A stretch of 64,000 bases of DNA from a virus (Duplodnaviria > Heunggongvirae > Uroviricota > Caudoviricetes). This document shows positions 9,426 through 39,363 of this stretch, piece by piece. The position numbers and the translations under genes were made by a program. The notes under the pieces are model-generated. The model made no database searches. It saw nothing but the letters and a program-made list of their open reading frames with translations, and had not been told where the DNA came from. Positions within the stretch are counted from its first letter, which is position 1. Every line of letters starts with the position of its first letter. The DNA is taken from the IMG/VR virus record IMGVR_UViG_3300042987_001724, one strand, 5' to 3'.

Positions 9426-9537
9426 GTTTCTGCCCTCTGGTTTGTGTGTCTGTAACGGGAAATGATACCCCAGTCACTGATTTGTACGCCAGACCAAACC
9501 CCAGTCACAAAAACGCATTGACGTCGCACCGTATTTG

Positions 9538-9876
9538 TCATCGAATTTCATTCAGAATCATTTCTGCCGCAGCGGCGAGTCCACGGTCGACCTGTTCATG
9601 AATCATGTTTGATGCGACGGTTCCGGCGATCCGTAGTTTGCTGGACACTCGCCGACAAGAAATCAGTTCCATGCCGACGTCAAACGCATTCGCTGGGTGC
9701 ATGCAGTACGCAAGGTAAAAGCCGCTTGGCAGTTCCCATAGATCCGCCAGTTTCGCCAGCCGTTTCAAGCGTTCATTCGCCGACATCCAATCGGCTTGCA
9801 GTTTGTTTTTCATCGGAGACAGTCCAGTGACAAATCTTCGCGCCATGGTCAGCAGTTTCCTTTCGGGCTGGTTCAT
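9538..9876 (-). CDS. hypothetical protein
   Basis: 112-aa ORF immediately downstream of the sigma-factor gene on the minus strand. Confidence 0.4.
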   Translation of the reverse strand: MNQPERKLLTMARRFVTGLSPMKNKLQADWMSANERLKRLAKLADLWELPSGFYLAYCMHPANAFDVGMELISCRRVSSKLRIAGTVASNMIHEQVDRGLAAAAEMILNEIR

Positions 9877-14563: not shown

Positions 14564-16489
14564 ATGTCTGCATCGTCACGATTTTCGCCACAGGACTGGG
14601 AGGCCACTTTAGTCGCCTGCCACTACCATCCAAAGCACGTCAAGGAACTGATGAAGCTGAGGGACGACATGCACGACTACGAAATGCACGTCCACCGGCT
14701 AGCAACAGATCCGAACCATAAAGTCCCGGACCCGCCGAACGTGACGATGCGACTCGGGCAGATCATTGGTGATGATGCCATGCGGCAATTCAGCCGCGAC
14801 GACGAATCCCCGCTCGAACTCGCCTGCCGACTCTCTGGGATCGGCCCGGCTGATGTTATCGCGTCTCTACCGTCGGAATTCAGCCGCCAGTTAGACGATA
14901 TCGGCCCCGTTGAATTCGGCCAGAAGTCGTTTGACTGGGACGAGACTGCGGTACACCGGGAAACGTCCGCTCACGACGGGAAAAAGCCCGGCGAATTCGC
15001 ACCAAAGCATGACTTCCCCGCAATCAATGCCGTGAAAGACGAATACAAGTTTCCGGAACGGCTGAATAAGCTGACTGCGATTCTGGATGCACATCAAACC
15101 GGAGATGTCCCGAAGGCTCAGTTCGAAATGGCCAAGAGCCACCTCAACTGGATTAAAGACGCAAAACGCCATTTGCTCGACTGGATGCACGCGGACCGAG
15201 ATGGGGATACTGATGCCGAACACCCACCAATGTCTCCAGCAGAAAGCGAGGCGGTTCGTGAGGCGTATTATGGATTCAACAAGAAGTCCATCAAGGCACT
15301 CGAAAAGCTGAACTCCGACCACCCAGCGGTAAAATACGCTCTCGCTCTGAATGCGGAACTGGACAAACTTGGCTCGCACATCGAATCCATGAAAGACAGG
15401 GTTGTCACGGCGGCACAGCAAAGGGAAGCCAAGAAAGCCGCAGCGGTTCGCGCCGAGAAGTCGAAGCCAGTGACCTCACTTTCGAAGGTTGTTGCCGAGG
15501 CGACTGAAACACTTCGCCCACAAATGACGTCCTTCTTTAAGCGAGTAATGACTGATCGGTTGAGTCTTCTGAATCGCATGGTTGACGAATACAACTCACA
15601 AGAGATTCCAAAGTCCACCGGGATTAGACTCACCAAGGAAGAACGAGACGCAGAGGAGTCCAGAAGCCGAAAATGGAAAAGCATCCAAGTCCTGTTCTCT
15701 GAAGTGCGAAACTGCCTGAGCGCTGACGCATCGGTGATGGAGGGAAACCACAAATTCGACGATGCTCGACTCGAAAGCCAGTCCAACGCATACGCCACGG
15801 GAGTCATCGAAGGGATGAGGTCCAAGATCAACCAAAAGCTGGAGGATCTTGACGACGCCAGCTTTAGGCATGCCAGCGGCGGCGAAAACACATTCGGATT
15901 GCACGGAACTCGCGACGGAAAGAAAGTCGAGATTCAGCAGAGCGTAAAATGGAACGTATCGTCTCTCGGGAACCCATTCAATCAGTATCCGGCCCTGATC
16001 TACGTTGACGGCAAGAGCGTATCTGAGGCGAAGTACAAAAGCATGTTCAGTCAGAAACCTGAACATCCGTCAAGTGAACCGGAGAAGCCAAAAGGCTCTG
16101 CACAGTCATTCATCTCTACCGTGCGGGAAATGGGATACAAAAACCCATTCTCCAATGAGACAGTTGTCGGAAACGCCGCCGTAGAACTGCACGCCAGCCC
16201 GGACGGATCGGTCTGGTTGAAAAGCATTCGGGCACTGACGCCGAAAAAAGGCGACGGCAGCGCAATGCTGAAGCAACTCACGAAACTGGCGGATGAAAAC
16301 GGAGTCGAGATCAAGGGCGAAGCGGTCCCATTCGGCAAGAGCATGAGTGCTGCGAAGCTCAAGAAATGGTACGTCGCCCACGGATTTACGCTGAACGGAG
16401 AAGAGTTTACCTACACGCCAACTCCACGATTGAAGATCGGCAGCGGACCCATGCGATCAATCCCAATCGAACAGCCGGAGCAAGAATAG
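14564..16489 (+). CDS. polyvalent protein 1 (641 aa) with linker module and C-terminal GNAT-like domain
   Basis: Contains RQFSRDD and SEFSRQLDDIGPVEFGQKSFDWDETAVHRETSAHDGKKPGEFAPK (module). C-terminal GNAT motif A-like LKSIRALTPKKGDGSAMLKQL. Ends EEFTYTP plus tail. Confidence 0.8.
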   Translation: MSASSRFSPQDWEATLVACHYHPKHVKELMKLRDDMHDYEMHVHRLATDPNHKVPDPPNVTMRLGQIIGDDAMRQFSRDDESPLELACRLSGIGPADVIASLPSEFSRQLDDIGPVEFGQKSFDWDETAVHRETSAHDGKKPGEFAPKHDFPAINAVKDEYKFPERLNKLTAILDAHQTGDVPKAQFEMAKSHLNWIKDAKRHLLDWMHADRDGDTDAEHPPMSPAESEAVREAYYGFNKKSIKALEKLNSDHPAVKYALALNAELDKLGSHIESMKDRVVTAAQQREAKKAAAVRAEKSKPVTSLSKVVAEATETLRPQMTSFFKRVMTDRLSLLNRMVDEYNSQEIPKSTGIRLTKEERDAEESRSRKWKSIQVLFSEVRNCLSADASVMEGNHKFDDARLESQSNAYATGVIEGMRSKINQKLEDLDDASFRHASGGENTFGLHGTRDGKKVEIQQSVKWNVSSLGNPFNQYPALIYVDGKSVSEAKYKSMFSQKPEHPSSEPEKPKGSAQSFISTVREMGYKNPFSNETVVGNAAVELHASPDGSVWLKSIRALTPKKGDGSAMLKQLTKLADENGVEIKGEAVPFGKSMSAAKLKKWYVAHGFTLNGEEFTYTPTPRLKIGSGPMRSIPIEQPEQE

Positions 16490-16492
16490 CCA

Positions 16493-19400
16493 ATGTCGCT
16501 CGAATCCGACCTGCAAACCGTACTCGGTTCATTTGTGGAAGTTTCCACGCCAATTCCTTTCTCAAGAACCGCCGCACCGGGGCAGAAACGTCTCTGGAAT
16601 GAGGCCGATGTCAGCCGGGAGTCCGAAGCCCATGAGGGGAAGCGCCCCGGCGAGTTCGCCCCGAAGCCACATGAGGGCACTGTTGACATCGGGAACGGAG
16701 TGTCGCTTAAAACTCATCCGCCAAAAACACACGTTATTAGGCCCGGCAACCAGTACGACACCCATTATTGGGAGGCCATAAAAAACGGAGAGACCATCGG
16801 CAGCGGGAGATATGCGAACTACGGAACCGCAACCCAGCCACTGGAGGTATCGGTGAATCCGTCGCATCGCGGTCAGGGAGTTTATTCGTCGGTGTTGGCG
16901 GAACTAAATCGCCGCGCGACTGTAATCCCGAACGACCTAAGCGTAAGCACTGAAGCAAAAAGGGCGTGGAACAGATTTCGAAAACAAACCGGAGAGCAAC
17001 CACAGTTCCCAGAAGCTATGACTCCGCAAGAGAAAAAGTCAAAAACGCCAGCCGGTCAGAATCTCCTGTTCGACTCCGGCGTCAGCGATCAGCCCGTAGC
17101 GAAGCCAGCCCCGCAACCGAGTGAGTTGGAGAAGATTGACGACGAGCAGAAGAAATCGAAGATTGCTCCGGTCGAAGGGCAGAAAGAGCTATTTGAGGGT
17201 GGATTGGAGCCTGTTCATCACCACGTCGCGAAGCGATTCGGGATTCCCCCGCACGCCGTCAAGAGCCTGATGGAATCCGGCGTGCCAGAATTGCGACGCC
17301 GCGACGAGTGGCTAGCTGAGAGTAATGGGGCTTCCCCGCAAACCGGGTTCGAGACATTCCCTCACGGCACAGCACGGATCAACCAATTCGGCGATCCCAA
17401 CGAATCCTACGTTGATTACATGACGGAATTCAGCCCGCACGATATCGAGCCGACGGAACCAGAGGACGGAATCAAGAAAAGCCAGACGTACAAGGATTAC
17501 GTCCAATGGGCGAAGGCGGGCCACCAGCCTCCCCCGGTCAGTGTGTTCAGTAGTAACAATGGCAACGGGAAACTGTTGACCTCAAGCCGCCGCAGAACGC
17601 TGGCCGCACGAGAGGCGGGAGTCGCAAAGATTCCAGCATGGCACGGACCCTATAACCCTGAAACCGGCAACCCGCTGAAATACGGTGACGTGATGAAGGC
17701 CGTAAACGAGTTCCACTCTCAGCAGTTTTCGCGAACGCTCAATGAAGTCACCCCGATAGAGTTCTCTGTCGCTGCTCCGCCACGTAAACGTCGAGTTATC
17801 GACGACAAGCGAACTCGCGAAGATGTTGACGAAGACGAAAAGGTATTCGGCAAGAAAAAACGAATCCCGACCGATGGTAACAAACCAGAAACCGGCTGGA
17901 CGAAAGTCGGTGGCAGCACGGTCCACGTCAACGATGATGGCGTCATCGACAAAGGCTGTCCCGGATTGAAGGGCGAGGAAGTCGAAGACCTGATTGACGA
18001 ATCCGACGAATCCCGCGAACGCCGCGAAGCCCGGCAGGCATACGCTCGCGCCGCTGGCATCACCGGAGATCAGATCACAGCCGAGCAAGCAAAAGCGATG
18101 GGGAGCGATGCTCACGTCGAAGGAATGAAGCAAGCCAAGGCAGTAGCGGAAGCAGATCCACGCCCAACAATCGGCACATCTGACGTTCTCCGTGGAGTGG
18201 ACGACCAGACCGGAGAGCTAGCCGGGAACGGTCACGAGCTTCTGCAATCCAACAATCGTGAGCACCCAGAATCCAACGAGCAATTCGAGGGAACTGGAAT
18301 GCCGTCGCCGATGAAGTTCATGGACGACGAAGACGAAGGCACCCGCCCGCAGTGGATGGGACCGAAGTTGTCGGAGATGGTCCCGATTCCGCCACGACCG
18401 AAATTCCTGCGAGATCGTGAGCCGCTCGACCACGATGCCGCAGCACAGTACCAGCCCCAGATTGACAAACTTGAGGCGGATATCGCCAAATGGCGAGATG
18501 CTCGCGACGCGATGAAAAAAGGCCGCGACGTCGGCCAATTCGGGCTTTCTCCAGAACAGAAAACCCCAGAATACGCCGATGCGCAAATCAAAGCACTGCA
18601 AGGACCGCTGGGGAAACTGAAACGGCAGTTGTCTGACTACCGGATGCGATCAACTCCAAACCAAAATCCAGCAACGCAGACATGGACCTCGCTGGACTCC
18701 GCAGCAGAGGGAGCGTCATCAAAATTCGGAATCCCAATTCACCACATTGTCGAAGCCATGCCGGATGCGTATTTATTCCGGCTGGCGCAGTCGATCGAGC
18801 ATGAATCGCTCAAAAAGGCAGCACGCAAGAAACTGCAAATGCACGCCGGTGATTTGGCAAGAATCGAAAACCAGCATTCCGACTGGTCTGATGTCCCCCG
18901 CTTCGACGAGGCTTCCCGAGAATTCGCGTCAGAAAACCCCGGTGCAGGTCTGGACCCATACGCCCACGATACGCCAGACAAGGTGTGGAGCCTGATCCGT
19001 GAGGGCGCGACGTCGATGCCAGCCAAGGACTCCCCGGAAATCGCAGAGCTTGCCGCACAGATGATTTCTGGCGACTACAATCGGAAGCCGCTGGAGTTCA
19101 CGTCAGAAGATGACCATGACGATCATGGCGACGATTTTTCAGATGACTGGGGAGGAGAACACGGCGACACGTCATTCGATCCGAATTCGTTCAGTCGATG
19201 GATACTCAATGCCGGTCCCGTGGAGTTCGCCCGCGTCAGGCCCGCCCGCAATCAATCTGCGTTCAATTGGGATGAGGATGCCCACCCCCGAGAGGCCACT
19301 GTACACGACGGAAAACGACCGGGAGAGTTTGCCGCAAAGCAGGGAGTCGCCGCGCCGCAGGAGATCGACCACGAATCCGACTACAAGCAGAACGGAACCC

Positions 19401-27052: not shown

Positions 27053-30000
27053 ATGCTTCCTTCAACCGCGTATTTGCTTTCCGACGCTTTTCGGCAGTCC
27101 ATTCAGTTTTCTACGGTGACGCCAGCGGCCCCTCACTCGCCAGTCCAGCACGCGACGATTGACCACAACACATTGAGCCATGCGGAGTTGGCGAACGCAG
27201 TAAAAACAGGCGGTCCGCACCAATTTCATGAATCAGAGCTTCCCAAGATCGGAATGCGGCTACGGAAGTCCGGCCAATTTTCAGCGGCAGACATCGTGGA
27301 TAACCATGCCAAGGCAATTCAGGCCGCGAAACAGCCCCCCGCCGCGCCTGTCGCCCAACGGCCAAATCTCCCCGCCTACGCTGGGGTTCTGTCGCCGAAT
27401 CGCAAAAAAGCCGTCATGGATTTTGTCAATCACGCGAATCCTGACGTTCAAAAGCATGTTGCCGATCATCAGGTCCACGTCCCCGGACTGACGCCCAAAG
27501 AAGCCTACGTGCGAGCACAGAAAGCCTACGACACATTCCATGCCGCGCACATGGGCGTTCCGCTGGCGACTCCTACCGCTTCACAGCCGACGGCAGCGCC
27601 GCAGTCAGCCCAACAATCGCCACCGCAGCCCGGAGTCTCTGCCTCTGCTCCACAACCAGCCGAGGATAAGGGTTCCGATTGGGATCTATGGAAAAACAAG
27701 GGGAGTCGGCCTCCGTTGAGTAGCCAGCAAAGGGCGGCGATTGGTCGGAAAATGGGGCTGACTGTCGGAACGCCAGAGGATGACGCACATCTCCCGAAGA
27801 CTATGCTGAACATCAGAAGTGATTATGCGGCGAACGCGGTAAAGGAGGAGGAGCCGGCGTACCAAAAGCCACTCATAGACCCCTCAAAGTACATTCCAGA
27901 TCGAAATGACCGCCTGCGATTGCGGACAATGGAAGCATGGGCGTTCAAGACTCCAGAGGGAAAAAAGGCTTACGATGAGTCCGGGATTGAAAAACTTGGA
28001 ATGGGGAAGCAACACACAGAGGCATTTCACCAACTTTACGACAAGTATCATTCCGGGCAGCAATCCGCACCCCCAGCGACACAACCAGCGAAGCAAACCC
28101 CGGCAGACGTCGCGAAGATGCACGCCGAAGCCGTCCGCAGTGGTCGCCCGGTCCCACCGCAGTATCTTGATCGCGTTCAGAAAAACCTGCGAGCACACGG
28201 CTACCATGCCGAGGCCGATCAGATCGCCCCGAAACAGGATGACGCGGCCTATGCTGCCGATCAGTTCGGATCGGGAACGATTCCGGCAACAACCGGGATC
28301 ACCGGCGCGGGGATGAAACGTCCCGGAGCACCTGCCCCGCAGAGATCGTTCTTGAATGACGAATCCACTGGCAGTCCAGCTAAATTACCGCCACGCCGCC
28401 CCGCACCAGCAAGCACGCCAGCCGAACAGCTTCCCGCCCCGAAGTTTGGTTACAGCACCCACACCGCACCGGCTGGAGTTGTCCCCGGAGAGCAATCAGA
28501 ACAACAGCCATCAACCCACGGTCGATTCTCCAGACTTCTCGACGCCGCGCGGCAGGGAAAGTTGAAAGAACACGTCGAAGGCGGTTTAGGGAACTTTTTT
28601 GACAAGTTCGAGCGACACGGCGGTAAACTTCTGAAAAAGATCGGCATCGACACCGGCTACAACGAGCAGGAATACAGCCGAGTTTCCGTAGCAATCGCCA
28701 ATCTGAACGATATCGTCCAAGAGTTCGCACGGAAATCCGATCCGAACCAGATGAGCTTATTTGGCGGTGACGAAATCGCACTGGCAACGGCCCCAAAGTC
28801 CAAGACCAGAAATCTGCGAAAGCCCGCCCCCGGTCAGAAGTCGTTCAATTGGGACGAAGATAGCCACCCTCGCGAAAAGGATCATCACGACGGGAAGCGG
28901 CCCGGAGAGTTCGCTCCAAAGGAATCCGGACACACATCAGCCACGAAACAAGAGCCGGAACCTGAAGAATCAGCCGAAAAACCGGAATCGGAACAGAAGC
29001 CGGACACGAAGCGGACATATTCGGCCAAAGGAAACGAGGTCCACGACGCCGACGGTGTCCGCCACGGCGCATTCCGCAACGAAGAAAAAGCGAAAGAGGC
29101 CGCAGAGCGATGGAACCGGGAAGGGAAACCAAACTCGACCCCAGCGGCGAAAGCTGTCGAAGCGACGTTCCCTTCACTGGCGGGATATGTGGAGCCGGAA
29201 TCGCCTCGCGAAGAACTCAAGAAGATTGCCGATGAGCACTTGGCGAGCGAGATTCCACCGGCACAGAATCCAGTTTCGGGACCAAAAGCAACCGACGGAA
29301 CAATTCCCGGACTGGAGCCAGAAAAGCCGAGCGAGACCCCACGGGAAGCCGCTGAACGGCAACAAAAGGCACTGGACGCCGATTACGAATTCGCCCGACA
29401 ATCCGCCGTCCGAAACGCAGGAGAAGACTTGAAAGGATCGGCAAGGCACAAGCGAAACGCTTGGCAAGGGCTTGATGACGCCGAAGAGAACGGAACCGCC
29501 GCAGAATTGGTGACTCGCGACAATTTACTGAAAGCCGAGCCTCACGACCTGATGTCGGCAGCAGATGAAAACCCGCGAACTTCTCTGGCTGGTTATTTCG
29601 CCCTTCGATCTTTTCCCGCAAAACCGGGTTCGACATCGAAACGTGTTCGCATAGACGAAGAGACCGCTAAGAAAGATCGCCGACAGTTCTTGGAGACATA
29701 CAGGCAGTACAAATCGAAGATCGAAGAACTGGCAAAAACAGAGCCAGATCCCGCAAAGGCCATCGCAGAGATTCGTGGCTGGGTTGGTAAAAAAATCAAT
29801 GAATTGCGGGGGATTGAAAAGAACAGGTCAGACTATATGGCCAACGCAGGGTTGATTGGTGACGACAAGTACAACAACACAGCGAATGGATTGGTCGACA
29901 CGTACAAGTCGCTCGGACACAGGAAAACTGGCGTTGCTTCCCGGCTACAAGACTTCGACTTCCTTGCTCGCGAAAAATACGGTTCAGAAAAACCAAGCAC

Positions 30001-31048
30001 AGATGATTTGGCAGAGCACGCCAAGGACATCATTGAAGGCCGGTCAATGCCTGACGCATTTGGCGCGAAGGGGACCAAGAAGTCTCAGTTCAACGCATCA
30101 GATGCGTATGTGAAACACGCCATTCGCAAGGGCGGTCGCGACGTCTCGAAACTGACGAAAAACCCGAACGAAGCCGCCAAGCATATCCTTGAGAAGTTCG
30201 GCGCTCGCGGTGTTCAGTGGGGCAATAGCGTCACCGATGACGAGCGGATGCACCATGCGTCGAAACTGGTTGAGTCCCTTGCTGATCTCGCCGACATGAC
30301 AGGACTGAAGCCAGAGGATCTAAGCCTTGGCGGGAAACTTGGGTGGGCAGTCGGAGCACGCGGCCACGGCACGGCGTCCGCGCACTACGAGCCGGGAACA
30401 CAGGTCATTAACCTAACTCGCAAATCCGGAGTCGGGGCGCTGGCGCACGAGTGGGCGCACGCATTCGATCACTCGCATTCTAACTACAATATCATTAGCG
30501 ACGGCGAAAAACGCATGGGCGATTACGAGTCAGGAAACTGGTATCCGCAGAAGTTTAGCGGCAGCAGTCGGACACCAGTGGATCAAACGAAAAAGCCGCT
30601 ATGGCAGGCATACGAGGCTGTCCGTCAAGCATGGGCAAAAAGCGGATTCGACAAGCGTCTTTCCGCTGCCGTTTCACACCACATCAATGAAGGTCGGATG
30701 TCAAAGGGTAAACGAGACTATTGGCTTTCAAAACACGAGAAATTCGCACGCACTTTCGAGCGGTTCATCCAGCACAAGTTGCGTGAAAACGGCAGAGACA
30801 ACACGTATCTGTCTGGACTGGCATCAATCGAAGGTGAGCACGCATTGTGGCCGAACGACGAGGAAATCAAGGTGATGGCCCCCGCATTCGAGAAGCTGCT
30901 GTCGCACTATCGCAAAGAAAAGTACGGCGACGAAAAACCGCAGGAGTTCAGCCGATCTCAGGCGATTGCGTATTTCTCAGGAAACTCGCTCAGTTCAGCA
31001 GTTGAACGCCTGACAGCTCTTTCGTCCTCACTCCGCAACGCAAGCTGA
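27053..31048 (+). CDS. giant polyvalent protein 3 (1331 aa) with zincin metallopeptidase domain
   Basis: P/A/Q-rich N-terminal ~530 aa. Internal module IVQEFARKSDPNQMSLFGG..PAPGQKSFNWDEDSHPREKDHHDGKRPGEFAPK. HExxH zincin motif LAHEWAHAFDH. Ends KPQEFSRSQAIAYFSG plus tail. Confidence 0.85.
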   Translation: MLPSTAYLLSDAFRQSIQFSTVTPAAPHSPVQHATIDHNTLSHAELANAVKTGGPHQFHESELPKIGMRLRKSGQFSAADIVDNHAKAIQAAKQPPAAPVAQRPNLPAYAGVLSPNRKKAVMDFVNHANPDVQKHVADHQVHVPGLTPKEAYVRAQKAYDTFHAAHMGVPLATPTASQPTAAPQSAQQSPPQPGVSASAPQPAEDKGSDWDLWKNKGSRPPLSSQQRAAIGRKMGLTVGTPEDDAHLPKTMLNIRSDYAANAVKEEEPAYQKPLIDPSKYIPDRNDRLRLRTMEAWAFKTPEGKKAYDESGIEKLGMGKQHTEAFHQLYDKYHSGQQSAPPATQPAKQTPADVAKMHAEAVRSGRPVPPQYLDRVQKNLRAHGYHAEADQIAPKQDDAAYAADQFGSGTIPATTGITGAGMKRPGAPAPQRSFLNDESTGSPAKLPPRRPAPASTPAEQLPAPKFGYSTHTAPAGVVPGEQSEQQPSTHGRFSRLLDAARQGKLKEHVEGGLGNFFDKFERHGGKLLKKIGIDTGYNEQEYSRVSVAIANLNDIVQEFARKSDPNQMSLFGGDEIALATAPKSKTRNLRKPAPGQKSFNWDEDSHPREKDHHDGKRPGEFAPKESGHTSATKQEPEPEESAEKPESEQKPDTKRTYSAKGNEVHDADGVRHGAFRNEEKAKEAAERWNREGKPNSTPAAKAVEATFPSLAGYVEPESPREELKKIADEHLASEIPPAQNPVSGPKATDGTIPGLEPEKPSETPREAAERQQKALDADYEFARQSAVRNAGEDLKGSARHKRNAWQGLDDAEENGTAAELVTRDNLLKAEPHDLMSAADENPRTSLAGYFALRSFPAKPGSTSKRVRIDEETAKKDRRQFLETYRQYKSKIEELAKTEPDPAKAIAEIRGWVGKKINELRGIEKNRSDYMANAGLIGDDKYNNTANGLVDTYKSLGHRKTGVASRLQDFDFLAREKYGSEKPSTDDLAEHAKDIIEGRSMPDAFGAKGTKKSQFNASDAYVKHAIRKGGRDVSKLTKNPNEAAKHILEKFGARGVQWGNSVTDDERMHHASKLVESLADLADMTGLKPEDLSLGGKLGWAVGARGHGTASAHYEPGTQVINLTRKSGVGALAHEWAHAFDHSHSNYNIISDGEKRMGDYESGNWYPQKFSGSSRTPVDQTKKPLWQAYEAVRQAWAKSGFDKRLSAAVSHHINEGRMSKGKRDYWLSKHEKFARTFERFIQHKLRENGRDNTYLSGLASIEGEHALWPNDEEIKVMAPAFEKLLSHYRKEKYGDEKPQEFSRSQAIAYFSGNSLSSAVERLTALSSSLRNAS

Positions 31049-31058
31049 AAGAATCTAT

Positions 31059-34000
31059 ATGGAACCCGGTTTCCTTGCCGCAGTCGATATTCTGGTCAAT
31101 CACTACCTCCCTGAATCCGAGTTCGCCCGCAAGTCGGCACCGAATCAACTTGGATTGTTTGGTGAGGACGAACTTGCCGCAGCCGTGGCCCCGAAGTCTC
31201 GCGCCCGGAATCTGCGAAAACCAGCCAAGGGGCAGATGGCTTTCAATTGGGATGAGGATTCGCACCCCCGAGAGGCGACTGTACACGACGGAAAACGACC
31301 GGGGGAGTTCGCGCCGAAGGAACACGCAGAGGCGGCGAAGGTCGCAGAGATGTACCCGTCCCTGAAAGATGACGTGGAGTCAGAGCCTGATGAGGAACAG
31401 CCGGAACCGGAACCAGTGGCGACTCACGCCGAACCGATCGTTCACAATGGCCATCAGATCGAACCGAAAGTCAGCAAGTCTAGCGACGGCACCGACGAGC
31501 ACTACGCACACTGGAAGAAAAACGGATCATGGGAAGCCGGAGTCACCAACTCGCACGGCAGCAGGGAAGAGGCGATTGAATCCGCGAAAGCGATGATCGA
31601 CGAATCCAATGATTCGAAGCAGCCCGCGAACCCATTCCGCGAAGAAGCCGACAGAATCAGGGCGAAAGCCGATCAGCTTGCGGGTGGAACAGCACACGAC
31701 AAGGCGATGGCATCGGCCTTCATTCTCGGCACCGGACGCCCCGGAAACGCATCGTCACAGCGAACAAGCCGACAGGCTGAGAAACGCATCGACGCAAGTA
31801 TCGACCGGGCATTGAAGGCCACCGAACTGTACGGTAAGGCGAAGTCAGTGGAGGCAAAAGCGGCAGCATTCGACAATGGGCAGATTGACGCCAACGGGAA
31901 TCCAACAGAGAAAGCCGTGGCGGCAAGTGAAGCCCGAAAGACCGCAGCGGACGGAGCAAAGCAGCAAATTGCCGACTACTTGAAGGGAACACTGAAGCCG
32001 GGAGACCTGATCGACATCGGCGGGAATGGTCCGGTTGCAGTGCAGAAGGTCAATAAAACGACGGTGACATCCGAAGGTGGATCGAAGTGGAAGTTCGACG
32101 ACATCACTCCTACGGAAAACGGAAAGCCAATTTCAAGATCCGAGTTTGCGAAGCGAGTCAACGCATTCCACGCCAGCAATGATCAGCCCGCAACTGAGGC
32201 CGCACCGAATCCGATCACAGAGCAATTCCCGTCCCTAAAGGGATTCACAGAAGAACCGAAGCCAGCGGAAGCACCCGCCGAAACCAAAAGCGTCTGGCAG
32301 CTTCCTTCGGAACAGTTCGATGCGATGCTTGAAAAGCAAGCGAATGGTAAAGCACCAGAGGACTCCGGCCCACTCACGCTAGCAAAACTCGACGAACGCA
32401 AGGAGCGCATCAACACCGGGAAAGCAACAGCCGACGAAGTTCGGCAGTGGCACAAGGAACTCAGCGACCCCGCCAATATCGAGGCCATAAAGGCGGAATT
32501 CAACAAGCAGTCCGTCGCCGAATTGAAGTCGAAGGGCGGGACTGGGTACTACAACCGACAAAAGAAAGCCGATCTGATCGAGTCAATCATGGATCACATC
32601 GGCGACGAATACGACGTATCCCCCGGAGGGCTGTCGTATGTGATGAGTCCGGGCGGGAGTTTAATGAAGTCCAAGCAGGCCGCACTTCAGAAAAAACTCG
32701 CCGGATTGACTGACCAGCACATTGCCGATCACGCCGCGAAATTGTCCGGCGCAGTGGCAAAAAGAGAGGAAGCAAGCGAAGCGGTCCAAGAGGGAATCAA
32801 GAATCCACAGACGCTCGACGACTTCCGAAACGCGGTTCGCCATTATGGCGGTTATGCGAACATGCCGGAAGATATCCAAGTGGCGTTTGATGAGTTCGCT
32901 GCGAACCGACGGCGAGAGACTGCCGCACAGTCGAAAGCGAAAGTCACCGGGTTCAGCGGCGGCACCGAAGCCACTGGCGCAACCTCAATCGTCGAAGGTC
33001 ATCACCAGAAGAAAAACGCCCCAACCTACACCGTCACCGTTGAAAAGCATTTGGGCGATGGGTGGGGTGACGCACTGAGTCGAGCACGTCAACTCGGCGG
33101 AAGCTACGTCAATGGGTGGACAGCCAAGGCATACAAGGCAACGCCCGGCTTCCAATTCTTCAATCGGGCTGATGCGGAGAAGTTCCAAAAGTCGCTTGGC
33201 GGTGAGGAAGTAGACCGATCCGACCGTCTGGACGAAAAGAACATCGCCCGGATGGATAACGCATCGGAACGACTGGCCGCACTGTCCGAAGCCACGAAGA
33301 AACGTGCCGAAGAGAAGTTAAACGCACCGCGACAGACGAACACGCACCGCCGCGCCGAACACGCCGCAGGAGCACAGGCACAGGCCCGGTCCGAAGCAGC
33401 CAAGGCGGAAACCATGCAGCGGATCTCCGAAGGGCTGTCATCCGGATCGTTGAAGCATCTCGGCGGAATCCGCGCCAGAACCCACGTTGATACGCTCGAT
33501 TCTCTTCTGCACAACGCGAAGCTGAATGCGTGGCGAGACTCGAAATCGACGTCACAGGATTCCTACGAAGAAATGCGGGAACGTGACGCCACTTCGCAGG
33601 ATATCGCCAAGGCGAAATATCCGTACCCAAGGATTTGGGATCACGAACTCGCCGAACACCTCGACGAGTTATCGCAGATTCCCGGACTGAAGAACATCGC
33701 TCGCGACCTGAAGAGGTCTACAGAGAAATCCCCGTACAAAAAGAAGATCGGCAAGATTTCCATCAATGGCGGTGAAGCCAAGACGGCGGACCAATTGGCA
33801 GATATCCCGCTGGCCCGAGGACTCGTTAAAGACAAGGCTGTCCGAATCCACGTCTCCCAAGATCCGACACTACTGAAGGGACGACACCCAGTCGCCTACA
33901 CAGCCGACGGCGGGAAGACTTGGGGCACGACTCAGGACATCGCCGTTAGCGCAGCCGTTCACGGAGAAATCAACGGGACCAGCAAGCTCGACCTGATCGA

Positions 34001-34850
34001 CCCACCGCAGCACGAACAGGTGGAAATCAAAGATCCGGACACCATCGCCAGCATCCAAAAGGCGATCAAGATCCTGAAAAGGAAGTCAAACCCACGATTG
34101 AAACGTGTCGCGGAATCACTCGGCCAGCACATGGAGGATTACAACCGACTCCAAGGGATGGATATCACGACGCCGATGGAACTTCGGGCCGCACTCCGCG
34201 AATACGCACCGCTCAAGAAGCGACAGGACAAGGAAGACCCGGTAAAGGCCAAGGAAAGATCGTTGGTCGGTCGCAAAATAGACGGCTTTTTCCCGACACC
34301 ACGCCCGGCGATCGACAAGATGCTGGCCGCAGCAGACATCCAGCCCGGAATGAGCGTATTGGAGCCGTCCGCAGGCAAGGGCGATATCCTTGATGCAGTG
34401 AAGGAACAGCACCCCGACGCCAAGACCATCGGGATCGAAACGAATTCGGATCTCCGCGACCTCATCGGCATGAAAGGCCACGAGTTACACGACGACACCG
34501 ACTTCCTTCAGCACAACGGCCAATACGATCGAATCGTAATGAATCCACCTTTTGAAAATCGTCAGGACGCGACGCATGTTCAGCACGCTTTCAAGAACCT
34601 CAAGCCGGGAGGCAGGCTGGTAGCCATCATGGGGGCAGGCGTGTTCGGTGGCAGCAGCAAAAAGGATCAGGAGTTCCGGGACTGGCTCGACGAGCACGGC
34701 GGGGAAGTCGAAGACATGCCGGAAGGTTCATTCAACGGGGCCGACGCATTCCGCAAAACCGGCGTCAACACCCGCATGGTAGTGATTGACAAACCACACG
34801 ATACCAAACAGTTCAGCCGGGATCTCGCCTTCGTCCTTTCTCGCATTTGA
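31059..34850 (+). CDS. giant polyvalent protein 4 (1263 aa) with C-terminal N6-adenine DNA methyltransferase domain
   Basis: N-terminal leader MEPGFLAAVDILVNHYLPESEFARKSAPNQLGLFGED..KGQMAFNWDEDSHPREATVHDGKRPGEFAPK. MTase motif I VLEPSAGKGDIL and motif IV NPPF (DRIVMNPPFEN). C-terminal KQFSRDLAFVLSRI. Confidence 0.9.
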   Translation: MEPGFLAAVDILVNHYLPESEFARKSAPNQLGLFGEDELAAAVAPKSRARNLRKPAKGQMAFNWDEDSHPREATVHDGKRPGEFAPKEHAEAAKVAEMYPSLKDDVESEPDEEQPEPEPVATHAEPIVHNGHQIEPKVSKSSDGTDEHYAHWKKNGSWEAGVTNSHGSREEAIESAKAMIDESNDSKQPANPFREEADRIRAKADQLAGGTAHDKAMASAFILGTGRPGNASSQRTSRQAEKRIDASIDRALKATELYGKAKSVEAKAAAFDNGQIDANGNPTEKAVAASEARKTAADGAKQQIADYLKGTLKPGDLIDIGGNGPVAVQKVNKTTVTSEGGSKWKFDDITPTENGKPISRSEFAKRVNAFHASNDQPATEAAPNPITEQFPSLKGFTEEPKPAEAPAETKSVWQLPSEQFDAMLEKQANGKAPEDSGPLTLAKLDERKERINTGKATADEVRQWHKELSDPANIEAIKAEFNKQSVAELKSKGGTGYYNRQKKADLIESIMDHIGDEYDVSPGGLSYVMSPGGSLMKSKQAALQKKLAGLTDQHIADHAAKLSGAVAKREEASEAVQEGIKNPQTLDDFRNAVRHYGGYANMPEDIQVAFDEFAANRRRETAAQSKAKVTGFSGGTEATGATSIVEGHHQKKNAPTYTVTVEKHLGDGWGDALSRARQLGGSYVNGWTAKAYKATPGFQFFNRADAEKFQKSLGGEEVDRSDRLDEKNIARMDNASERLAALSEATKKRAEEKLNAPRQTNTHRRAEHAAGAQAQARSEAAKAETMQRISEGLSSGSLKHLGGIRARTHVDTLDSLLHNAKLNAWRDSKSTSQDSYEEMRERDATSQDIAKAKYPYPRIWDHELAEHLDELSQIPGLKNIARDLKRSTEKSPYKKKIGKISINGGEAKTADQLADIPLARGLVKDKAVRIHVSQDPTLLKGRHPVAYTADGGKTWGTTQDIAVSAAVHGEINGTSKLDLIDPPQHEQVEIKDPDTIASIQKAIKILKRKSNPRLKRVAESLGQHMEDYNRLQGMDITTPMELRAALREYAPLKKRQDKEDPVKAKERSLVGRKIDGFFPTPRPAIDKMLAAADIQPGMSVLEPSAGKGDILDAVKEQHPDAKTIGIETNSDLRDLIGMKGHELHDDTDFLQHNGQYDRIVMNPPFENRQDATHVQHAFKNLKPGGRLVAIMGAGVFGGSSKKDQEFRDWLDEHGGEVEDMPEGSFNGADAFRKTGVNTRMVVIDKPHDTKQFSRDLAFVLSRI
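31241..31318 (+). repeat. about 78-nt direct repeat, copy B
   Basis: Near-identical to 19262..19340. Both encode the WDED-HPRE-HDGKRPGEF box. Confidence 0.8.
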
Positions 34851-34894
34851 TGAATTAGGGAAGTTTCGTATAATCTCCCCGAAAGGAGCTAGTT

Positions 34895-35395
34895 TTGGCA
34901 AATCAAGCACAAGTGACGGCTCAACTGTACGCGAAGGAAACTGTCGCAGCGACAGATACCGCACCGAGTTACGATCAGCCCGCAGACATCGCGAACTATC
35001 CGACGCAATACTCTGCGTCACAGTTTCCGGGGCTGACGATCTGGGCACAGACCGTCACGCTGACGGCGGGAGCCTTGACACTCGATTTGACCGCACTGGC
35101 TCGCGCTGGGGCATCAACCGTCAATCTGACCGGGAAACGCATTCTGGCGGCCAAGGCTGTTGCGCTGGCGACGAATACGCATCCGGTCACCATCAAGCCC
35201 GGAGCGAGCAACCCCTATTCCGCTCTCGGCCTTGGCATCAGTCTCGGCGTTTCCGCTGTTACCACTGAACGACCGGATGAAGCTCTATTGCACATCCCGT
35301 CCGGGACAGCAGTTGACGCCACTCACAAAAATCTCGACTTCGCCAGTAGTGATGCTGACGCATCCGTAGCCATTATCATCATCGCCCGCACATAA
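34895..35395 (+). CDS. beta-rich structural-like protein (TTG start)
   Basis: Strong AAAGGAG RBS 7 nt upstream of TTG, and a TATAAT box ~25 nt upstream. Ala/Thr/Ser/Val-rich beta-type composition typical of virion accessory proteins. Inserted between giant genes 4 and 5. Confidence 0.5.
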   Translation: MANQAQVTAQLYAKETVAATDTAPSYDQPADIANYPTQYSASQFPGLTIWAQTVTLTAGALTLDLTALARAGASTVNLTGKRILAAKAVALATNTHPVTIKPGASNPYSALGLGISLGVSAVTTERPDEALLHIPSGTAVDATHKNLDFASSDADASVAIIIIART

Positions 35396-35406
35396 GGCCC
35401 GCAAAC

Positions 35407-38400
35407 ATGCCGGAACCCGGATTTCTTCGCGCAGTGGAAGTATTGACCGACGCCCTGTTGACCCCGCAGGAGTTTGCACGGCACAAGCCATCTCCAGACC
35501 AAATGACGCTCCGTTGGGTGACGATTCACCCACATGGCGAAGGTGAAGAAAGTCGAAGAATCCAGATCAACACCGAAACCGGCGAAATCGAGAAGGGTTT
35601 CGGGGCTGGAAAAACCATGCACGAAGCCTTTTCACCGAAGAGTGAAACGCTTGCCACAAGTGAAACACAGTCCAGCACTCCGGGGCGCAAATGGTATGGG
35701 ATGACGTATCGACCACCAGCATTGGGCGCGATCCCCAAAGGTGAGTATGAGCACAAGCCGCACCCTGATTTCCGGCACGGACAGATCTCCTACAATGAGC
35801 CACTCAGTCAGGAGATGCAGGACGCCTATGAGCTTACGCCAATCCATGAGGACGGGGATATTCCGGCTGTCGCGAAGTCTGTTGGCGCTGCGATGGGGAA
35901 GTATGCTGGCGAATACGCCAAGCCGCAAAACGCACAGCTTCTCGACGACCAACTGTCTCTAGAACGCATCCGCAAACTTCTCGGTCACGTTGACAAGGAG
36001 AAACTGAAAGCGGAGTTCCGGAAACAGTTCGGACAGGAATCCGATGCGGACCGCATTGAATCGGAGGCGTCATCTATCGCGGATGGCGTGCAAAAGCAAA
36101 AACAGCGATCAATGATTTATCAGGCGGACGACAAGGAGCGACTTGCAGAAAAGCACGGAAAGCCGCTCGACGCATATCACGATCTCCCGTTTGATGATTG
36201 GATGAAACTTCGTGCGGCTGATGACGAATCAGGTCGGGAACCGCAAAAGCCAGACGACGCCATCCTGAGCAAATATCCATCCCTTGCCGAACCACCGAAA
36301 CAAGCCGAAATGAGCGAGATGGTCCGCGCCGCCGCTGGCTATCAACTCCACGGAATGAGGAATGAACCAGAAGACCGCGCGGCATGGCGAGAACATTCAC
36401 AGCACATGACGAAATCCGCACTCGACGGATGGCTGATGAAGAAGTTCGGGATCGATTCCGCCACCGCCCGAGCCGTCAGCAACGCCGCTGGTGATATGAA
36501 CCCATTCACAACCGAAGGAGCGGGGACCGTTGGAGGGCAGGGCGTCAAATGGAATCACGACAGCCCGGAACCGACGATGGAGGAACTTGGTGACATGCCT
36601 TGGCTGAAGTCGGACGCGGCAGCAGAGAACTCAATCCAGCACAATCGCGAATCGCTATCGTCGATGCGTTCCGGGATGAAAGCGAAGATTGCCGAACTTG
36701 AGGCCAAGGAGGCGTCGGAAACTAAGCGACTGACGGCGGAAAAATCCCGAGCAAAGGGGGCGGAGAAAAAGGACGCGATTGACGATCAGTGGCGAGCCAT
36801 GAAGGACGACTTGTCAAAGCAGCGACAGGCTGTGATGCAGTCTCACCTGAAGGAAATCGAGTCGCATCCCGAGTATCAGCAGGAAAAGGCGGAGTCGTCA
36901 AGAAAAGCCAAGGGAAGGCAGGACGCATCTCAGGCGGAAGACAAGGCGAGAGCCAGCGACGCTGATAAAGCGAACTGGGACCACATTCAGAGCAACGGAG
37001 GCTACGAAGCCGTTCGCGACAGTCTTACCGCAGACATCAAAAGTCTGAAAAGTCGACTTGCTAAAACCAAGGACGCGAATAAATGGAAACTGGAAAGCAA
37101 TCTCGCCAATCGGGAGCGTGACCTTGAGCGAGTGAATGCACTGAATGAGAAATACGGGTCGAAACAGCCAGCCGTCCCACCGGAGATAGCCGCAAAGTAC
37201 CCATCATTGGCGGAAGACGTTGGCGCAAAACCAGAGGCAGCAAAAGAGCCGTGGGAGATGACACGAGACGAGTTCATGCGACAATCGGCAGCGAAACCAG
37301 CGTCGGGCGGATTTGCTGCGAGAGCAAACGCGAAGATTGCCAAGCCGTACCATCGACAATTGGTCACTCAGGCCGTCGCTGATGGGAAGTCGGTTCCGCC
37401 AGAAGTTCTCGCCGATTATCCAGAATTGTCGGGCGATCCAGAGAAGTCTGGTCAAGTCTCGTCAAGTCCGGAGAAGTCCGCAGACGAGCGGAAACCATTC
37501 AAGCCCGAAGGCGTCCCCGGCGAGCAAATGGGGTTGTTCGATCAGGACGCAGGCGGACAGAAATCTCTGTTCAATGTTGTCAAACCCGACAAGAAATCGA
37601 AAAAGGCACCAGCCGCCGCGCCGTCCGAACTGGAAAAGATCAGAGACGAGCACAATGCGAGGTCCGAAGAATCCGCACCGCTACCGGGGCAGAAGTCTAT
37701 CAGGGGTTTAGCAACAAAGCCGAAAAACACCGCAGAGGCTGATGAAAAGATCGCGTCTCAAAAAATGGCCTCCGACTTTCTTCAGGAGTCCAGAGATGAA
37801 AAAGAACAAGCGAAAAGAAAAGAGCGAGTGAGTCAATGGAGAAGCGGCTTCACTGGATCTCCAAAGGAGAATAACGCATCCGGAGATATCGCTCGCCACG
37901 ACTGGGAAAAGGCACTGCAAAACGGAGTATCCCCAAAACGACTTTCCGAGATGGTCGATAGTGCCGTTCAGGCTGGCGCTCTCGACGCTGGCGTTGGAAA
38001 GCATCTAAAGTCTCGGTTTTCTATCGAAGATCAGTACCCGAGCCTGAAGGGGTTCTCGGATCACCAAAATCTCAAGCCCATGTACGCCCCAAGCGACGAA
38101 AAGACCAAGGCGGGCGAGGAGTACCGCACCGCACTTGCCGGAGCCGGTAAATTCCACGCATCCAGAGTTGCGGCAGCGGAAGCAGGCGTTAAGGCTGGTC
38201 ACACACTCGACGAAATGCTGCAAGACCTGAAGGACGAAGGCGTCCACGAATTCGACGCGAAGCGGATCATCGGAGACGCATTCAACAAGGCCGGAAAGCC
38301 AGTAACTCGAAGCGACCAGCCGAAGCCGAGGCCATCCGACGATGACTGGAAACCAGAGAACCACGTCAAGATCGCAGCGGATGACATCAGCAAACTACGA

Positions 38401-39363
38401 AAGCAAGACGTTCACCGACTCATGGAGAACGCCACGGGCGACCGCCGCGCCAAGATGGCCGACTACATCCGGCAGAACCGCCCAGAACTCGCAGGAGAGG
38501 TTCAGGACTCGCTTGACGACTTGGGTGGAGATTCATCCGCATCTAAGGACTCCCCGTCTGTGTACGAGATTCGAGTGAAAGGCCAAGACGGAAACCCGAC
38601 AACTAAACATGCTGTGGCAATGCGAGGTAAGCCGGGTTTTGGAGATAGCGTATTTAACTCGCGAGAGGAAGCCGAATCTCACATCAAAAAGACGGGCGAG
38701 ATAAACAGACTTAATGCTGAATATCAGGCTAAACAAGACGTGATTCGTAAAACGGAACAGGAAAAGGAACACGCCGAAAAGACGGAGCGTGAAAGCATCG
38801 ACGGGTTTGCCAACGACAGGTCACCAAGAGACAAGGCCAATATCATCAAGACACTGAATGCGAAAGCGTCATTCGATGGTAAGGTTATGTCGGTTAAAGA
38901 TAAAGTAAGGGATCTTGTCGCGAATGGAGAATCGCTGTCGGCTGACGAGGAAAACAAAATCAAGCCTATGACGCGAACTCAATTCAACAGGGCGGATGGT
39001 CGCGAACAGGACGCCCACGAAAAAAGAATGCGTGAAGGCGGCAAGAAAACCGTGTATCGCATTGGCGGGTATGATCTCGGGAAGACTGCATACGACTACG
39101 CCAAGCATCTGCTCTCGCAAGGAAAGAAAGAGTTCTCCCGCCGCGCACCACACGAAGAACTAATCCATCATCTCCACGAAGCAATGAACCACGACGGAAA
39201 ATGCTGCTACGAAAAAGAGGAAGGGGAAGACGACATCGCGGATCACGTTCCAGCCGATCACCGCCACATGGACAAATCCGTCCACGAACTCTGCCGACAT
39301 CTCGGAGCATCGCACCCGGAATTGCAGGCGGCATACGAAAACTACACCGCCGCAGTAGAATAG
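35407..39363 (+). CDS. giant polyvalent protein 5 (1318 aa), mostly charged/coiled-coil
   Basis: N-terminal leader MPEPGFLRAVEVLTDALLTPQEFARHKPSPDQM. Internal LFDQDAGGQKSLFN..KKAPAAAPSELEKIRDE box shared with protein 2. C-terminal KKEFSRRAPHEE plus Cys/His-rich tail. Confidence 0.85.
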   Translation: MPEPGFLRAVEVLTDALLTPQEFARHKPSPDQMTLRWVTIHPHGEGEESRRIQINTETGEIEKGFGAGKTMHEAFSPKSETLATSETQSSTPGRKWYGMTYRPPALGAIPKGEYEHKPHPDFRHGQISYNEPLSQEMQDAYELTPIHEDGDIPAVAKSVGAAMGKYAGEYAKPQNAQLLDDQLSLERIRKLLGHVDKEKLKAEFRKQFGQESDADRIESEASSIADGVQKQKQRSMIYQADDKERLAEKHGKPLDAYHDLPFDDWMKLRAADDESGREPQKPDDAILSKYPSLAEPPKQAEMSEMVRAAAGYQLHGMRNEPEDRAAWREHSQHMTKSALDGWLMKKFGIDSATARAVSNAAGDMNPFTTEGAGTVGGQGVKWNHDSPEPTMEELGDMPWLKSDAAAENSIQHNRESLSSMRSGMKAKIAELEAKEASETKRLTAEKSRAKGAEKKDAIDDQWRAMKDDLSKQRQAVMQSHLKEIESHPEYQQEKAESSRKAKGRQDASQAEDKARASDADKANWDHIQSNGGYEAVRDSLTADIKSLKSRLAKTKDANKWKLESNLANRERDLERVNALNEKYGSKQPAVPPEIAAKYPSLAEDVGAKPEAAKEPWEMTRDEFMRQSAAKPASGGFAARANAKIAKPYHRQLVTQAVADGKSVPPEVLADYPELSGDPEKSGQVSSSPEKSADERKPFKPEGVPGEQMGLFDQDAGGQKSLFNVVKPDKKSKKAPAAAPSELEKIRDEHNARSEESAPLPGQKSIRGLATKPKNTAEADEKIASQKMASDFLQESRDEKEQAKRKERVSQWRSGFTGSPKENNASGDIARHDWEKALQNGVSPKRLSEMVDSAVQAGALDAGVGKHLKSRFSIEDQYPSLKGFSDHQNLKPMYAPSDEKTKAGEEYRTALAGAGKFHASRVAAAEAGVKAGHTLDEMLQDLKDEGVHEFDAKRIIGDAFNKAGKPVTRSDQPKPRPSDDDWKPENHVKIAADDISKLRKQDVHRLMENATGDRRAKMADYIRQNRPELAGEVQDSLDDLGGDSSASKDSPSVYEIRVKGQDGNPTTKHAVAMRGKPGFGDSVFNSREEAESHIKKTGEINRLNAEYQAKQDVIRKTEQEKEHAEKTERESIDGFANDRSPRDKANIIKTLNAKASFDGKVMSVKDKVRDLVANGESLSADEENKIKPMTRTQFNRADGREQDAHEKRMREGGKKTVYRIGGYDLGKTAYDYAKHLLSQGKKEFSRRAPHEELIHHLHEAMNHDGKCCYEKEEGEDDIADHVPADHRHMDKSVHELCRHLGASHPELQAAYENYTAAVE

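Follow-up and report, generated by a model that had tools for sequence, protein, structure and literature searches.

Our analysis concerns a 64,000-nucleotide stretch of DNA (hereafter the window) from the tailed-phage record IMGVR_UViG_3300042987_001724 in IMG/VR, and within it an array of giant genes, A to E, whose products are divided into modules by a conserved, repeated peptide that we term the connector (or leader, where it stands at an N-terminus). Polyvalent proteins are probably one of the main ways in which counter-defence enzymes reach the host when a phage infects it. The best overall explanation, which we consider reasonably probable, is that the array encodes multi-enzyme polyvalent effectors that would be loaded into the phage head and delivered with the DNA. 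These effectors would comprise some 15 or more autonomous cargo units, each made of a connector, a globular domain and a closing [EQ]FSR, and strung together in one open reading frame (ORF) or encoded as separate genes, with the switch between the two states made by gain or loss of a stop or start inside the connector. The connector would be the signal that recruits each unit to the procapsid, at the portal or core region, and/or that allows the unit to be cut free, for which the HExxH zincin unit of C is a candidate processing enzyme. A particle would then deliver ADP-ribosyltransferase (ART), kinase-like, ParB/sulfiredoxin (Srx)-fold, GNAT-like, N6-adenine DNA methyltransferase, DarA-like and zincin units at infection. 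Our confidence differs between the parts of this proposal: that A to E are polyvalent effectors of the virion type is very likely, and the role of the connector as a loading or processing signal is close to an even call, if not slightly under it. What is new is the scale of five to six genes, the connector or leader and the [EQ]FSR that closes the units, the joining and splitting of genes within the connector, and kinship to a motif at portal junctions.

The five ORFs lie on the + strand at 14564-16489 (A, 641 aa), 16493-25192 (B, 2899 aa), 27053-31048 (C, 1331 aa), 31059-34850 (D, 1263 aa) and 35407-39363 (E, 1318 aa), exactly as given in the original prediction, which had been made from the letters alone. 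They contain no internal stops and together encode 7452 aa (~820 kDa). The span from A to E covers 38.8% of the window (coding share of the five ORFs, 35%), close to the roughly 40% first estimated. B is identical to a gene called in a Joint Genome Institute (JGI) metagenome, on a 115,069-bp contig, and an independent Logan contig carries C, D and E without change, which indicates that these genes are not sequencing artefacts. The description of the five as adjacent and consecutive stands for A and B (3-nt gap) and for C and D (10 nt), but not for the other two junctions: an HNH homing-type endonuclease gene and a 100-aa gene split B from C (1.86 kb), and a 166-aa gene splits D from E (556 nt). 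Relatives used for comparison were metagenomic contigs (L001, L002, L006 and L010-L012) and family proteins labelled P followed by four digits.

The identification of the array as phage polyvalent proteins, in the sense of Iyer, Burroughs, Anand, de Souza and Aravind (2017, J Bacteriol; PMC5512222), holds at the level of predicted domains, because ART-PolyVal and LPD1 score above threshold, DarA_C falls just below it, the repertoire fits the published catalogue and the setting is that of a phage. The signature features found are PF18760, PF18796, HEWAH and the FPTP/NPPF pair, with PF18789 sub-threshold, and B, C and D are multidomain chains in the range of 2-15 effector or enzymatic domains per chain that defines polyvalent proteins. 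Hidden Markov model (HMM) searches and predicted folds indicate that the domain list first read from the sequence was largely right. The connectors of B, of which there are at least seven, set apart GNAT-like, ParB/Srx, ART-PolyVal, kinase-like and Cys4 modules together with several unassigned ones, ahead of a KQFSR end and a 13-aa tail. The GNAT-like segment (aa 76-142; 16718-16918, +) is weak, with Acetyltransf_7 at E=1e-3, below the Pfam threshold, and the GNAT domain also proposed for A was unsupported by HMM search; outside its single connector (aa 98-150), A has no family match. The ParB-like domain (aa 232-415; 17186-17737, +) carries an (S/N)RRR..LAA..AG motif common to many other polyvalent proteins, and its fold, predicted from a homologue alignment (predicted local distance difference test score, pLDDT, 89), has ParB/KorB/Noc as its top PDB matches, with sulfiredoxin and further members of the ParB/Srx fold ranking next (Foldseek probability ~1.0, E about 1e-3). 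Assignment to ddrB-ParB (PF18763) was rejected: in the homologue P0022 that model maps to another segment, so the domain of B has the ParB/Srx fold and belongs to a different family. The ART domain (aa 1014-1330; 19532-20482, +) matches ART-PolyVal (PF18760) above threshold, at 6e-13 to 8e-15, and this is the sole ART model matched in the array. The protein-kinase-like region (aa 1500-1825; 20990-21967, +) shows a GKG...VVK and D.xQ.G...D.G pattern, and its fold, likewise predicted from a homologue alignment (pLDDT 85.5), matches kinases and pseudokinases including RNase L, PRPF4B and RIO. The proposed Zn-ribbon is a possible one, read from the four-cysteine pattern CxxC-x11-C-x12-C in B (aa 2003-2031; 22499-22585, +).

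The N-terminal half of C is rich in Pro, Ala and Gln, and its C-terminal part carries, at aa 1040-1290, the predicted zincin (HEWAH at aa 1132; 30446-30460, +) together with LPD1 (PF18796, 4.6e-12, above threshold); the zincin also matches NCBIfam CLCA_X at 5.6e-28, yet below the cut-off of that model. C closes with QEFSR and a 30-aa tail. D contains a region like gp60 of phages F116 and H66 (aa 433-1050) and a TaqI-type N6-adenine methyltransferase (aa 1046-1250), foreseen from its NPPF motif (34542-34553) and now joined by a Methyltransf_23 match, FPTP (34290-34301) and M.TaqI as the nearest solved structure, before a KQFSR end and a 9-aa tail. In PDB sequence searches that methyltransferase alone was matched, A, B, C and E giving nothing usable. 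E holds a DarA_C/phrog_1926-like segment (aa 80-193; 35644-35985, +), in which aa 97-147 match DarA_C (PF18789) at E=1.1e-5 and 26.2 bits against a threshold of 27, 0.8 short, and aa 80-193 match phrog_1926 at 1.4e-9, a family annotated 'released from the phage upon host infection'. Elsewhere E has YPSL at three boundaries and QxxLF twice in tandem, and it finishes with KEFSR and a tail of 73 aa. DarA_N and Hdf were not detected in the array proteins, no helicase family was found in any of the five (Pfam, NCBIfam, PHROGs), and PLxRFG was absent from A to E both as an NCBIfam match and as a PL.RFG string.

The connector that joins these domains has the consensus ...[EQ]FSR, 8-12 residues (xLxDIxP), VEF[AG]R, KPxPGQxx[FL]x[FW](D/E)E, xxHPRE, xxxHDGK(K/R)PGEFAPK. 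It opens with a short amphipathic helix before EF[AG]R, and the units close with [EQ]FSR. The window holds seven full and at least four partial copies; those in A to E are all on the + strand. The copy in A (14855-15013) is full (EFSR..PVEFGQ..FDWDE..HRE..HDGKKPGEFAPK), as are three in B: one at its N-terminus (16535-16672; aa 15-60), the best-scoring of all (19181-19348; aa 897-952; domain E=3.6e-30), and one containing QMSLF (20774-20938; aa 1428-1482). B also has a short generic form, FNWDADEHPRDEIGRF (21935-22042; aa 1815-1850), and two degenerate forms, EFSR..PVEFGR..GQKGFDF without HPR (23087-23182; aa 2199-2230) and EFSR..EFEFAR (24350-24451; aa 2620-2653). Long forms occur in C (28673-28927; aa 541-625), with two Q-motifs, and as the full N-terminal leader of D (31059-31328; aa 1-90), with QLGLF. 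E retains the N-terminal part alone, helix plus EFAR, followed by RWVTIHPHG...I.I...G.I..G. In some units, at aa 468-500 of B (17894-17990) and aa 36-66 of E (35512-35604), the place of the HPR core is taken by an alternative element, W(I/V)T(I/V)GG.H....G..V.ID..G.I..G, which other polyvalent proteins (P0011, P0019, P0020) often carry and which resembles a small beta-hairpin module. Against shuffled sequences the excess of connector elements is large, with 18 occurrences of [EQ]F[SA]R (0.26 expected), six of GxxPGEF (0.01) and six of [YF]PSL (0.11). The last belongs to an [IV]xxx[YF]PSL[KA][GED] motif found six times in C, D and E (29168-29179, 31353-31364, 32226-32237, 36274-36285, 37198-37209 and 38035-38046), often some 10 residues past GEFAPK or at the borders of E modules, and up to five times per family member. 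B, C, D and E all end in [EQ]FSR plus a tail of 9-73 aa, and D and E start with M(E)PGFLxAV..L....EFAR, from which it follows that the gene boundaries fall inside the connector module. The connector itself matched no Pfam, PHROG or NCBIfam family at E<=1 or 0.1.

Selection on the connector acts at the level of the peptide and not of the DNA. The DNA copies are 63-89% identical, most of them 63-82%, and across the 12-residue core of seven copies the codon pairs divide into 104 identical, 117 synonymous and 31 non-synonymous. A DNA repeat as the source of the shared module was accordingly set aside, the copies differing by these amounts and mostly at synonymous positions. The same figures bear on the notion of a connector that is no more than a flexible, passive linker or a scar of recombination, its repeated DNA aiding cassette shuffling and its peptide having no function. 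Such a scar would account for the marked differences in domain order and content among relatives, with breakpoints at connectors and fusion and fission inside them, and one pair of copies that is 89% identical over 81 nt could reflect gene conversion. However, an excess of 117 synonymous over 31 non-synonymous differences denotes strong purifying selection on the peptide, most copies at 63-82% identity are poor substrates for homologous recombination, the module is kept at the N-terminus of single-domain proteins, where a linker is unneeded, and phages of distinct bacterial phyla have conserved its core motif. We therefore regard a functionless linker or scar as improbable.

A profile built from eight window copies was searched against 1.84 billion representative proteins, and matched 94 protein clusters at E<=1e-3 and 39 at <=1e-10, many of them giant proteins with up to eight copies each. 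The original prediction of a linker private to this array thus survives in one half: the module is shared far beyond chance (HMM domain E-values to 1e-30), but it appears rare and not private to this phage, as the 94 clusters and the occurrence of its core in cultured phages indicate. Among 179 significant family copies, 36 sit at the extreme N-terminus, some of them in proteins as small as 110-450 aa; the N-terminal consensus is M[ED]DGF[LR]xAVDxLxxH[YF]..EFARKPAxGQxxFxFDExxHPRExxxHDGKKPGEFAPK; one third of family members finish with [EQ]FSR and a tail. A six-frame scan of the window located a sixth carrier beyond the A-E span: a 110-aa gene at 9093-9425 (-) consists of a full leader, MEDGFLRAVDILTDHFEFSNSFDESKHPREHESHDGKKPGEFAEK, and a domain of ~50 aa. 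Related arrays show how freely the units move between genes. That of L001 reads 687, 2759, [HNH, - strand], 77, 448 (leader-bearing), 71 (helix-turn-helix, HTH) and 2214 aa (LPD1 plus ART), and that of L002 reads 2180, 306 (leader-bearing), 57 (HTH), 93 and 2192 aa (LPD1 plus methyltransferase); the zincin/LPD1 unit is present in all three of the related arrays examined. In the 2192-aa protein P0043 the C-like and D-like sequences form a single ORF with the junction '...QEFSR SDAIEFFTGE...SGFLDALEFLVENEFAR KPAVGQKSLF...', colinear, in the window, with the end of C, its stop, the next start and the leader of D. In P0004 a B-type tail, 'KQFSREEWQLYQRIIKGAE', reads through into 'MEDGFRKALDVLVNHYLPESEFARKPAAGQ...' and a further domain, with the old start Met kept. 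Relatives also differ in the order and content of modules, the breakpoints falling at connectors. Because genes join and split within the connector, evolution can exchange covalent linkage of units for separate genes and back, as would be expected if the mature products are single units.

Several observations connect these proteins to the virion. Residues 433-1246 of D are 32% identical to a giant protein of F116-like Pseudomonas phages, including H66 gp60; the match is labelled 'structural protein' in the GenBank records of H66 and Epa33, and the record note for H66 gp60 includes the words 'verified by mass spectrometry as part ...'. Modules of B (aa ~239-570 and 737-936) recur in P0013, P0014 and P0016, proteins with a Mu-type portal at the N-terminus, in which the portal domain is followed by InPase, ART, 2H/Acb1-like or LPD3 units. 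On L006, a 36-kb IMG/VR contig, the gene immediately after a 1115-aa Mu-type portal gene encodes 723 aa and bears a connector. The generic core of the connector, W-[DE]-E-x-K-HPR-x3-G-x-F, was found by tblastn in cultured phages: at the boundary between portal and C-terminal extension in Xanthomonas PhiXhv-5 ('AQWEENKHPRADNGQFGAG'), on the HI1409-family portal of a Helicobacter prophage ('AQWDESKHPRAENGQFGAG') ahead of a further domain, weakly (E=0.6) on the putative portal of Edwardsiella ZHS, and, in Burkholderia Bups phi1, N-terminally in a 174-aa protein ('...YDASWEESKHPRAANGQFGAG') encoded right behind the portal and head-morphogenesis (MuF) genes. The Bups phi1 peptide, used as query, gave tblastn E-values down to 3e-5. 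The short generic core, not the full leader, finds cultured phages; the full leader of D gave no tblastn match to GenBank phages even at E=1, and protein-pattern matches of the leader in IMG/VR were unconfirmed by tblastn. The position of the core at portal junctions of cultured phages suggests that the connector is a lineage-specific elaboration of a wider junction motif of head cargo. Separately, aa 1941-2030 of P0014 form a 2H phosphoesterase unit that also matches the Acb1 family (8e-5), which counters cyclic oligonucleotide-based antiphage signaling systems (anti-CBASS); the similarity suggests that some units of the B-related protein family may degrade cyclic-nucleotide immune signals.

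The portal fusions also bear on what the connector might do. The motif is kept in proteins that are fused to the portal and need no docking, which argues that its function lies at least partly in release or processing. A zincin that prefers a hydrophobic residue at P1' would fit the invariant Phe of x-E-F-[SA]-R. More tentatively, the connector could be a general, transplantable 'cargo tag' of tailed phages, expanded here to load units and mark cut sites, in which case gene fusion and fission would be neutral; as a further layer, its GQxxLF would dock the released units on the host sliding clamp. We consider this general role possible but doubtful.

The points that weigh against head loading and a connector signal are several. 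Packaging, cleavage and injection are read from homology and genomic context, and targeting alone cannot explain the motif in portal fusions, where a docking signal is redundant. Only one homologue, H66 gp60, comes with virion proteomics, and it has no connector motifs. Pfam, PHROG and GenBank-phage searches recognised neither a portal nor a MuF gene in the window, including the stretch between the large terminase and the head genes, and the array lies outside the structural module, some 11 kb of small genes separating E from the terminase. No protease is tied to the EF[SA]R sites, and the only protease of the window besides the zincin has a signal peptide and is not conserved. Finally, the connector resembles motifs that bind the beta clamp, to which we return below. 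The 476-aa gene at 57593-59023 was considered as a candidate portal or protease; it has no Pfam, PHROG or tblastn match to GenBank phages. The second protease, a trypsin-like serine peptidase at 3449-4459 (+; Trypsin_2, 4.9e-16), is probably exported, given its N-terminal signal peptide (MRRLFLAVSHLLLLLTPAFSQE), and an exported protease is unusual for a phage; as a cutter of EF[SA]R, with Arg at P1, it was rejected on account of the signal peptide and of the lack of a counterpart in the syntenic region of L002.

These features invite another account, in which A to E are synthesised once infection is under way and act in the cytoplasm as polyproteins for host takeover or counter-defence, the connector serving folding, assembly or processing there. 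The array sits outside the head module, among small, early-looking genes beside the sigma-factor block; the 166-aa gene (by scan) and C (by eye) are preceded by sigma-70-like hexamers; and the window lacks a recognised portal/MuF gene. The promoter-like sites, however, are no commoner than in shuffled sequence, and the family HMMs, the virion-annotated homologue of D, the portal-fused homologues and the connector genes adjacent to portals all point to the head. A cytoplasmic role thus seems unlikely, although not so unlikely as the scar.

We assign a similarly low probability to the idea that the connector is mainly a host-targeting motif, in which GQxx[LM]F would bind the sliding clamp (DnaN) and so tether the polyproteins to clamps or sequester the clamps. 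Methyltransferase, ParB-like and other enzymes would then be concentrated on DNA, or host replication and repair would be shut down. The consensus of clamp-binding motifs is QL[SD]LF, tolerant at positions 2 and 3, as in GQLGLF of Escherichia coli DNA polymerase (Pol) II and GQADMFG of Pol III alpha (PMC11139829). Q..[LMF]F occurs eight times in the array against 1.1 expected (maximum of five among 500 shuffles), as QMSLF (twice), QLGLF, QMGLF, QKSLF, QSSLF, QNLLF and QKELF, with every copy in a disorder-like linker; these are pattern matches, of the form Q-x-x-[LM]-F in disorder, and the QLGLF of D equals the Pol II motif. The Q-motif is moreover repeated 8-10 times, often in tandem pairs, in the unrelated polyvalent proteins P0011, P0019, P0020 and P0109 ('YA[KR]..PxPGQ[KR]SLFG'). 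Most full connectors nevertheless read QxxFxW and not QxxLF, and a Trp at the last position weakens clamp binding (PMC11139829). The Q-motif also sits in a longer conserved HPRE..HDGK+PGEFAPK module that has no counterpart in clamp ligands, and the portal-associated generic form of cultured phages has the HPR core without the Q-motif.

The proposed virion-cargo array can be set beside known systems. In phage T4, short N-terminal tags send unrelated cargo, including an ADP-ribosyltransferase, into the prohead, as seen for the internal proteins and Alt, and the gp21 protease trims them. In its proposed role the connector resembles these tags in concept only, without sequence similarity, and stands at internal as well as N-terminal positions. 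The ART of B belongs to ART-PolyVal and not to the Alt/ModA/ModB family, so that the comparison to Alt made at the outset fails, and a prohead protease was not identified in the window. The likeness to the polyvalent class of PMC5512222 is closer: ART-PolyVal, zincin with LPD1, a TaqI/EcoKI-type methyltransferase, ParB-superfamily, GNAT-like (weak) and DarA-like (sub-threshold) domains recur. The class is encoded by phages with a portal-terminase packaging system, among late or virion genes, and of that setting the window shows the terminase and head genes. That work predicted polyvalent proteins to be packaged and injected, predicted their zincins to autoprocess, as proposed for P1 DdrB, and described TaqI/EcoKI-type adenine methyltransferases with TP and NPPF motifs (PMC5512222). 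In contrast to that class, typified in the cases examined by one giant protein, there are here five to six genes in an array; the connector, a description of which was not found by text searches of PMC5512222, delimits the units and stands on small single-domain proteins as well; the ParB-like domain falls outside ddrB-ParB; and a protein-kinase-like unit is present.

Phage P1, the best-studied case, likewise has several large head-internal proteins (DarA, DarB, DdrB and Hdf) that are delivered with the DNA, DarA and DdrB being proteolytically processed; delivery is a deduction for the present array. E has the sub-threshold DarA_C-like segment, and D a DarB-like adenine methyltransferase. D lacks the helicase half of the DarB methyltransferase-helicase dyad, however, and the label DarB-like therefore falls away for want of a helicase partner. 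In P1 DarB, capsid targeting resides in residues 1-30, which suffice for the loading of a reporter, and T4 also has a capsid-targeting sequence (PMC9024508). The P1 Dar proteins are without a recognisable shared targeting consensus (PMC9024508), unlike the at least six proteins here that share one tag. H66 gp60 (Hollowayvirus, 3787 aa, 'PLxRFG domain-containing protein') shares with D the 32% identity noted above, the methyltransferase included, but is a single giant gene beside the lysis cassette that lacks the connector, and the window proteins lack PLxRFG. Portal-PBECR, portal-2H and portal-InPase fusions have been catalogued (PMC5512222). The array resembles such portal/MuF-fused effectors, among them the MuF polymorphic toxins, in that homologues of B modules are fused to Mu-type portals and the core motif lies at the portal/effector boundary; it differs in that no unit of the window is fused to a portal or MuF and in that the motif is expanded to ~45-60 aa and repeated.

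The locus bears on how polyvalent proteins are loaded into heads, on how they are cut into separate enzymes and on what constitutes a 'unit', and it adds a kinase-like unit and a ParB/Srx unit distinct from ddrB to the polyvalent repertoire. A conserved repeated peptide, stand-alone cargo and a portal-junction core in culturable phages together make the question of loading and processing directly testable. The connector could provide a portable tag for packaging heterologous proteins into phage particles, and if the cargo-tag interpretation is true, the injected weapons of a phage could be freely exchanged and reassorted, like beads on a string.

Judged by its gene content, the window belongs to an uncultivated tailed phage of ~115 kb. 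It encodes a large terminase subunit (TerL; 50243-51913), a lambda-gpD-like decoration protein (59075-59893), a major head protein (59962-61119), PhoH and an exonuclease, and contains no tRNAs. Its relatives come from metagenomes, as contigs of 110-113 kb; among 50,697 GenBank phages the entire array had no megablast match, and the best matches of TerL, to the archaeal virus psiM2 and actinophages, have only ~31% identity. The leader and core were searched by DNA pattern in IMG/VR and in GTDB genomes. In 185,579 GTDB species genomes the core-motif pattern matched three stretches, all in Planctomycetota metagenome-assembled genomes (Phycisphaeraceae, Gemmataceae): L010/L012 (CAYRPN010000126.1) and L011 (JAXMBA010000014.1). 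The Phycisphaeraceae contig carries C- and D-like genes near-identical to 27053-34850 of the window. As the pattern matches are confined to Planctomycetota genomes, in two bins, this lineage may infect Planctomycetota, binning being only a hint of the host.

A sigma factor gene (9906-10475, -; phrog_1740, 9e-18) is also present in L002, and shares a minus-strand block (9093-9876 region) with the 110-aa leader-tagged gene, a proximity that hints at phage-specific transcriptional control of the tagged proteins. Scans of the array for sigma-70-like promoters and for terminators found them no more frequent than in shuffled sequence, and a candidate shared promoter motif, a GGTAKAATYTCCCC-like box present three times, was equalled in 7 of 100 shuffles and dropped. 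The 100-aa gene between B and C (26310-26612, +) is Cys-rich and precedes the C-like gene in L001, L002 and L012; the 166-aa gene between D and E (34895-35395, +; 160-166 aa in relatives) is beta-rich-looking, and is also found in L010 and after the fused C+D gene of L002. No family matched either gene, and they could be chaperones or adaptors for the giant proteins. Both keep the same positions in relatives, as does the HNH gene after B (25207-26190, -), whose counterpart at the same place in L001 is 33% identical, which marks it as a long-standing resident. It is one of three homing-type endonuclease genes in the 64 kb, the others lying at 1779-2639 (+; HNH) and 7879-8664 (+; GIY-YIG-like). 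The AT skew of the coding strand is 0.22-0.35 over the array (14000-40000) versus ~0-0.1, typically about 0.05, elsewhere. B to E are 25-45% disorder-like and rich in Lys, Glu, Gln, Ala and Pro, and the positive skew fits their disorder-like linkers, which are rich in Lys, Glu, Gln and Asp; this signature could help to spot such arrays in raw sequence.

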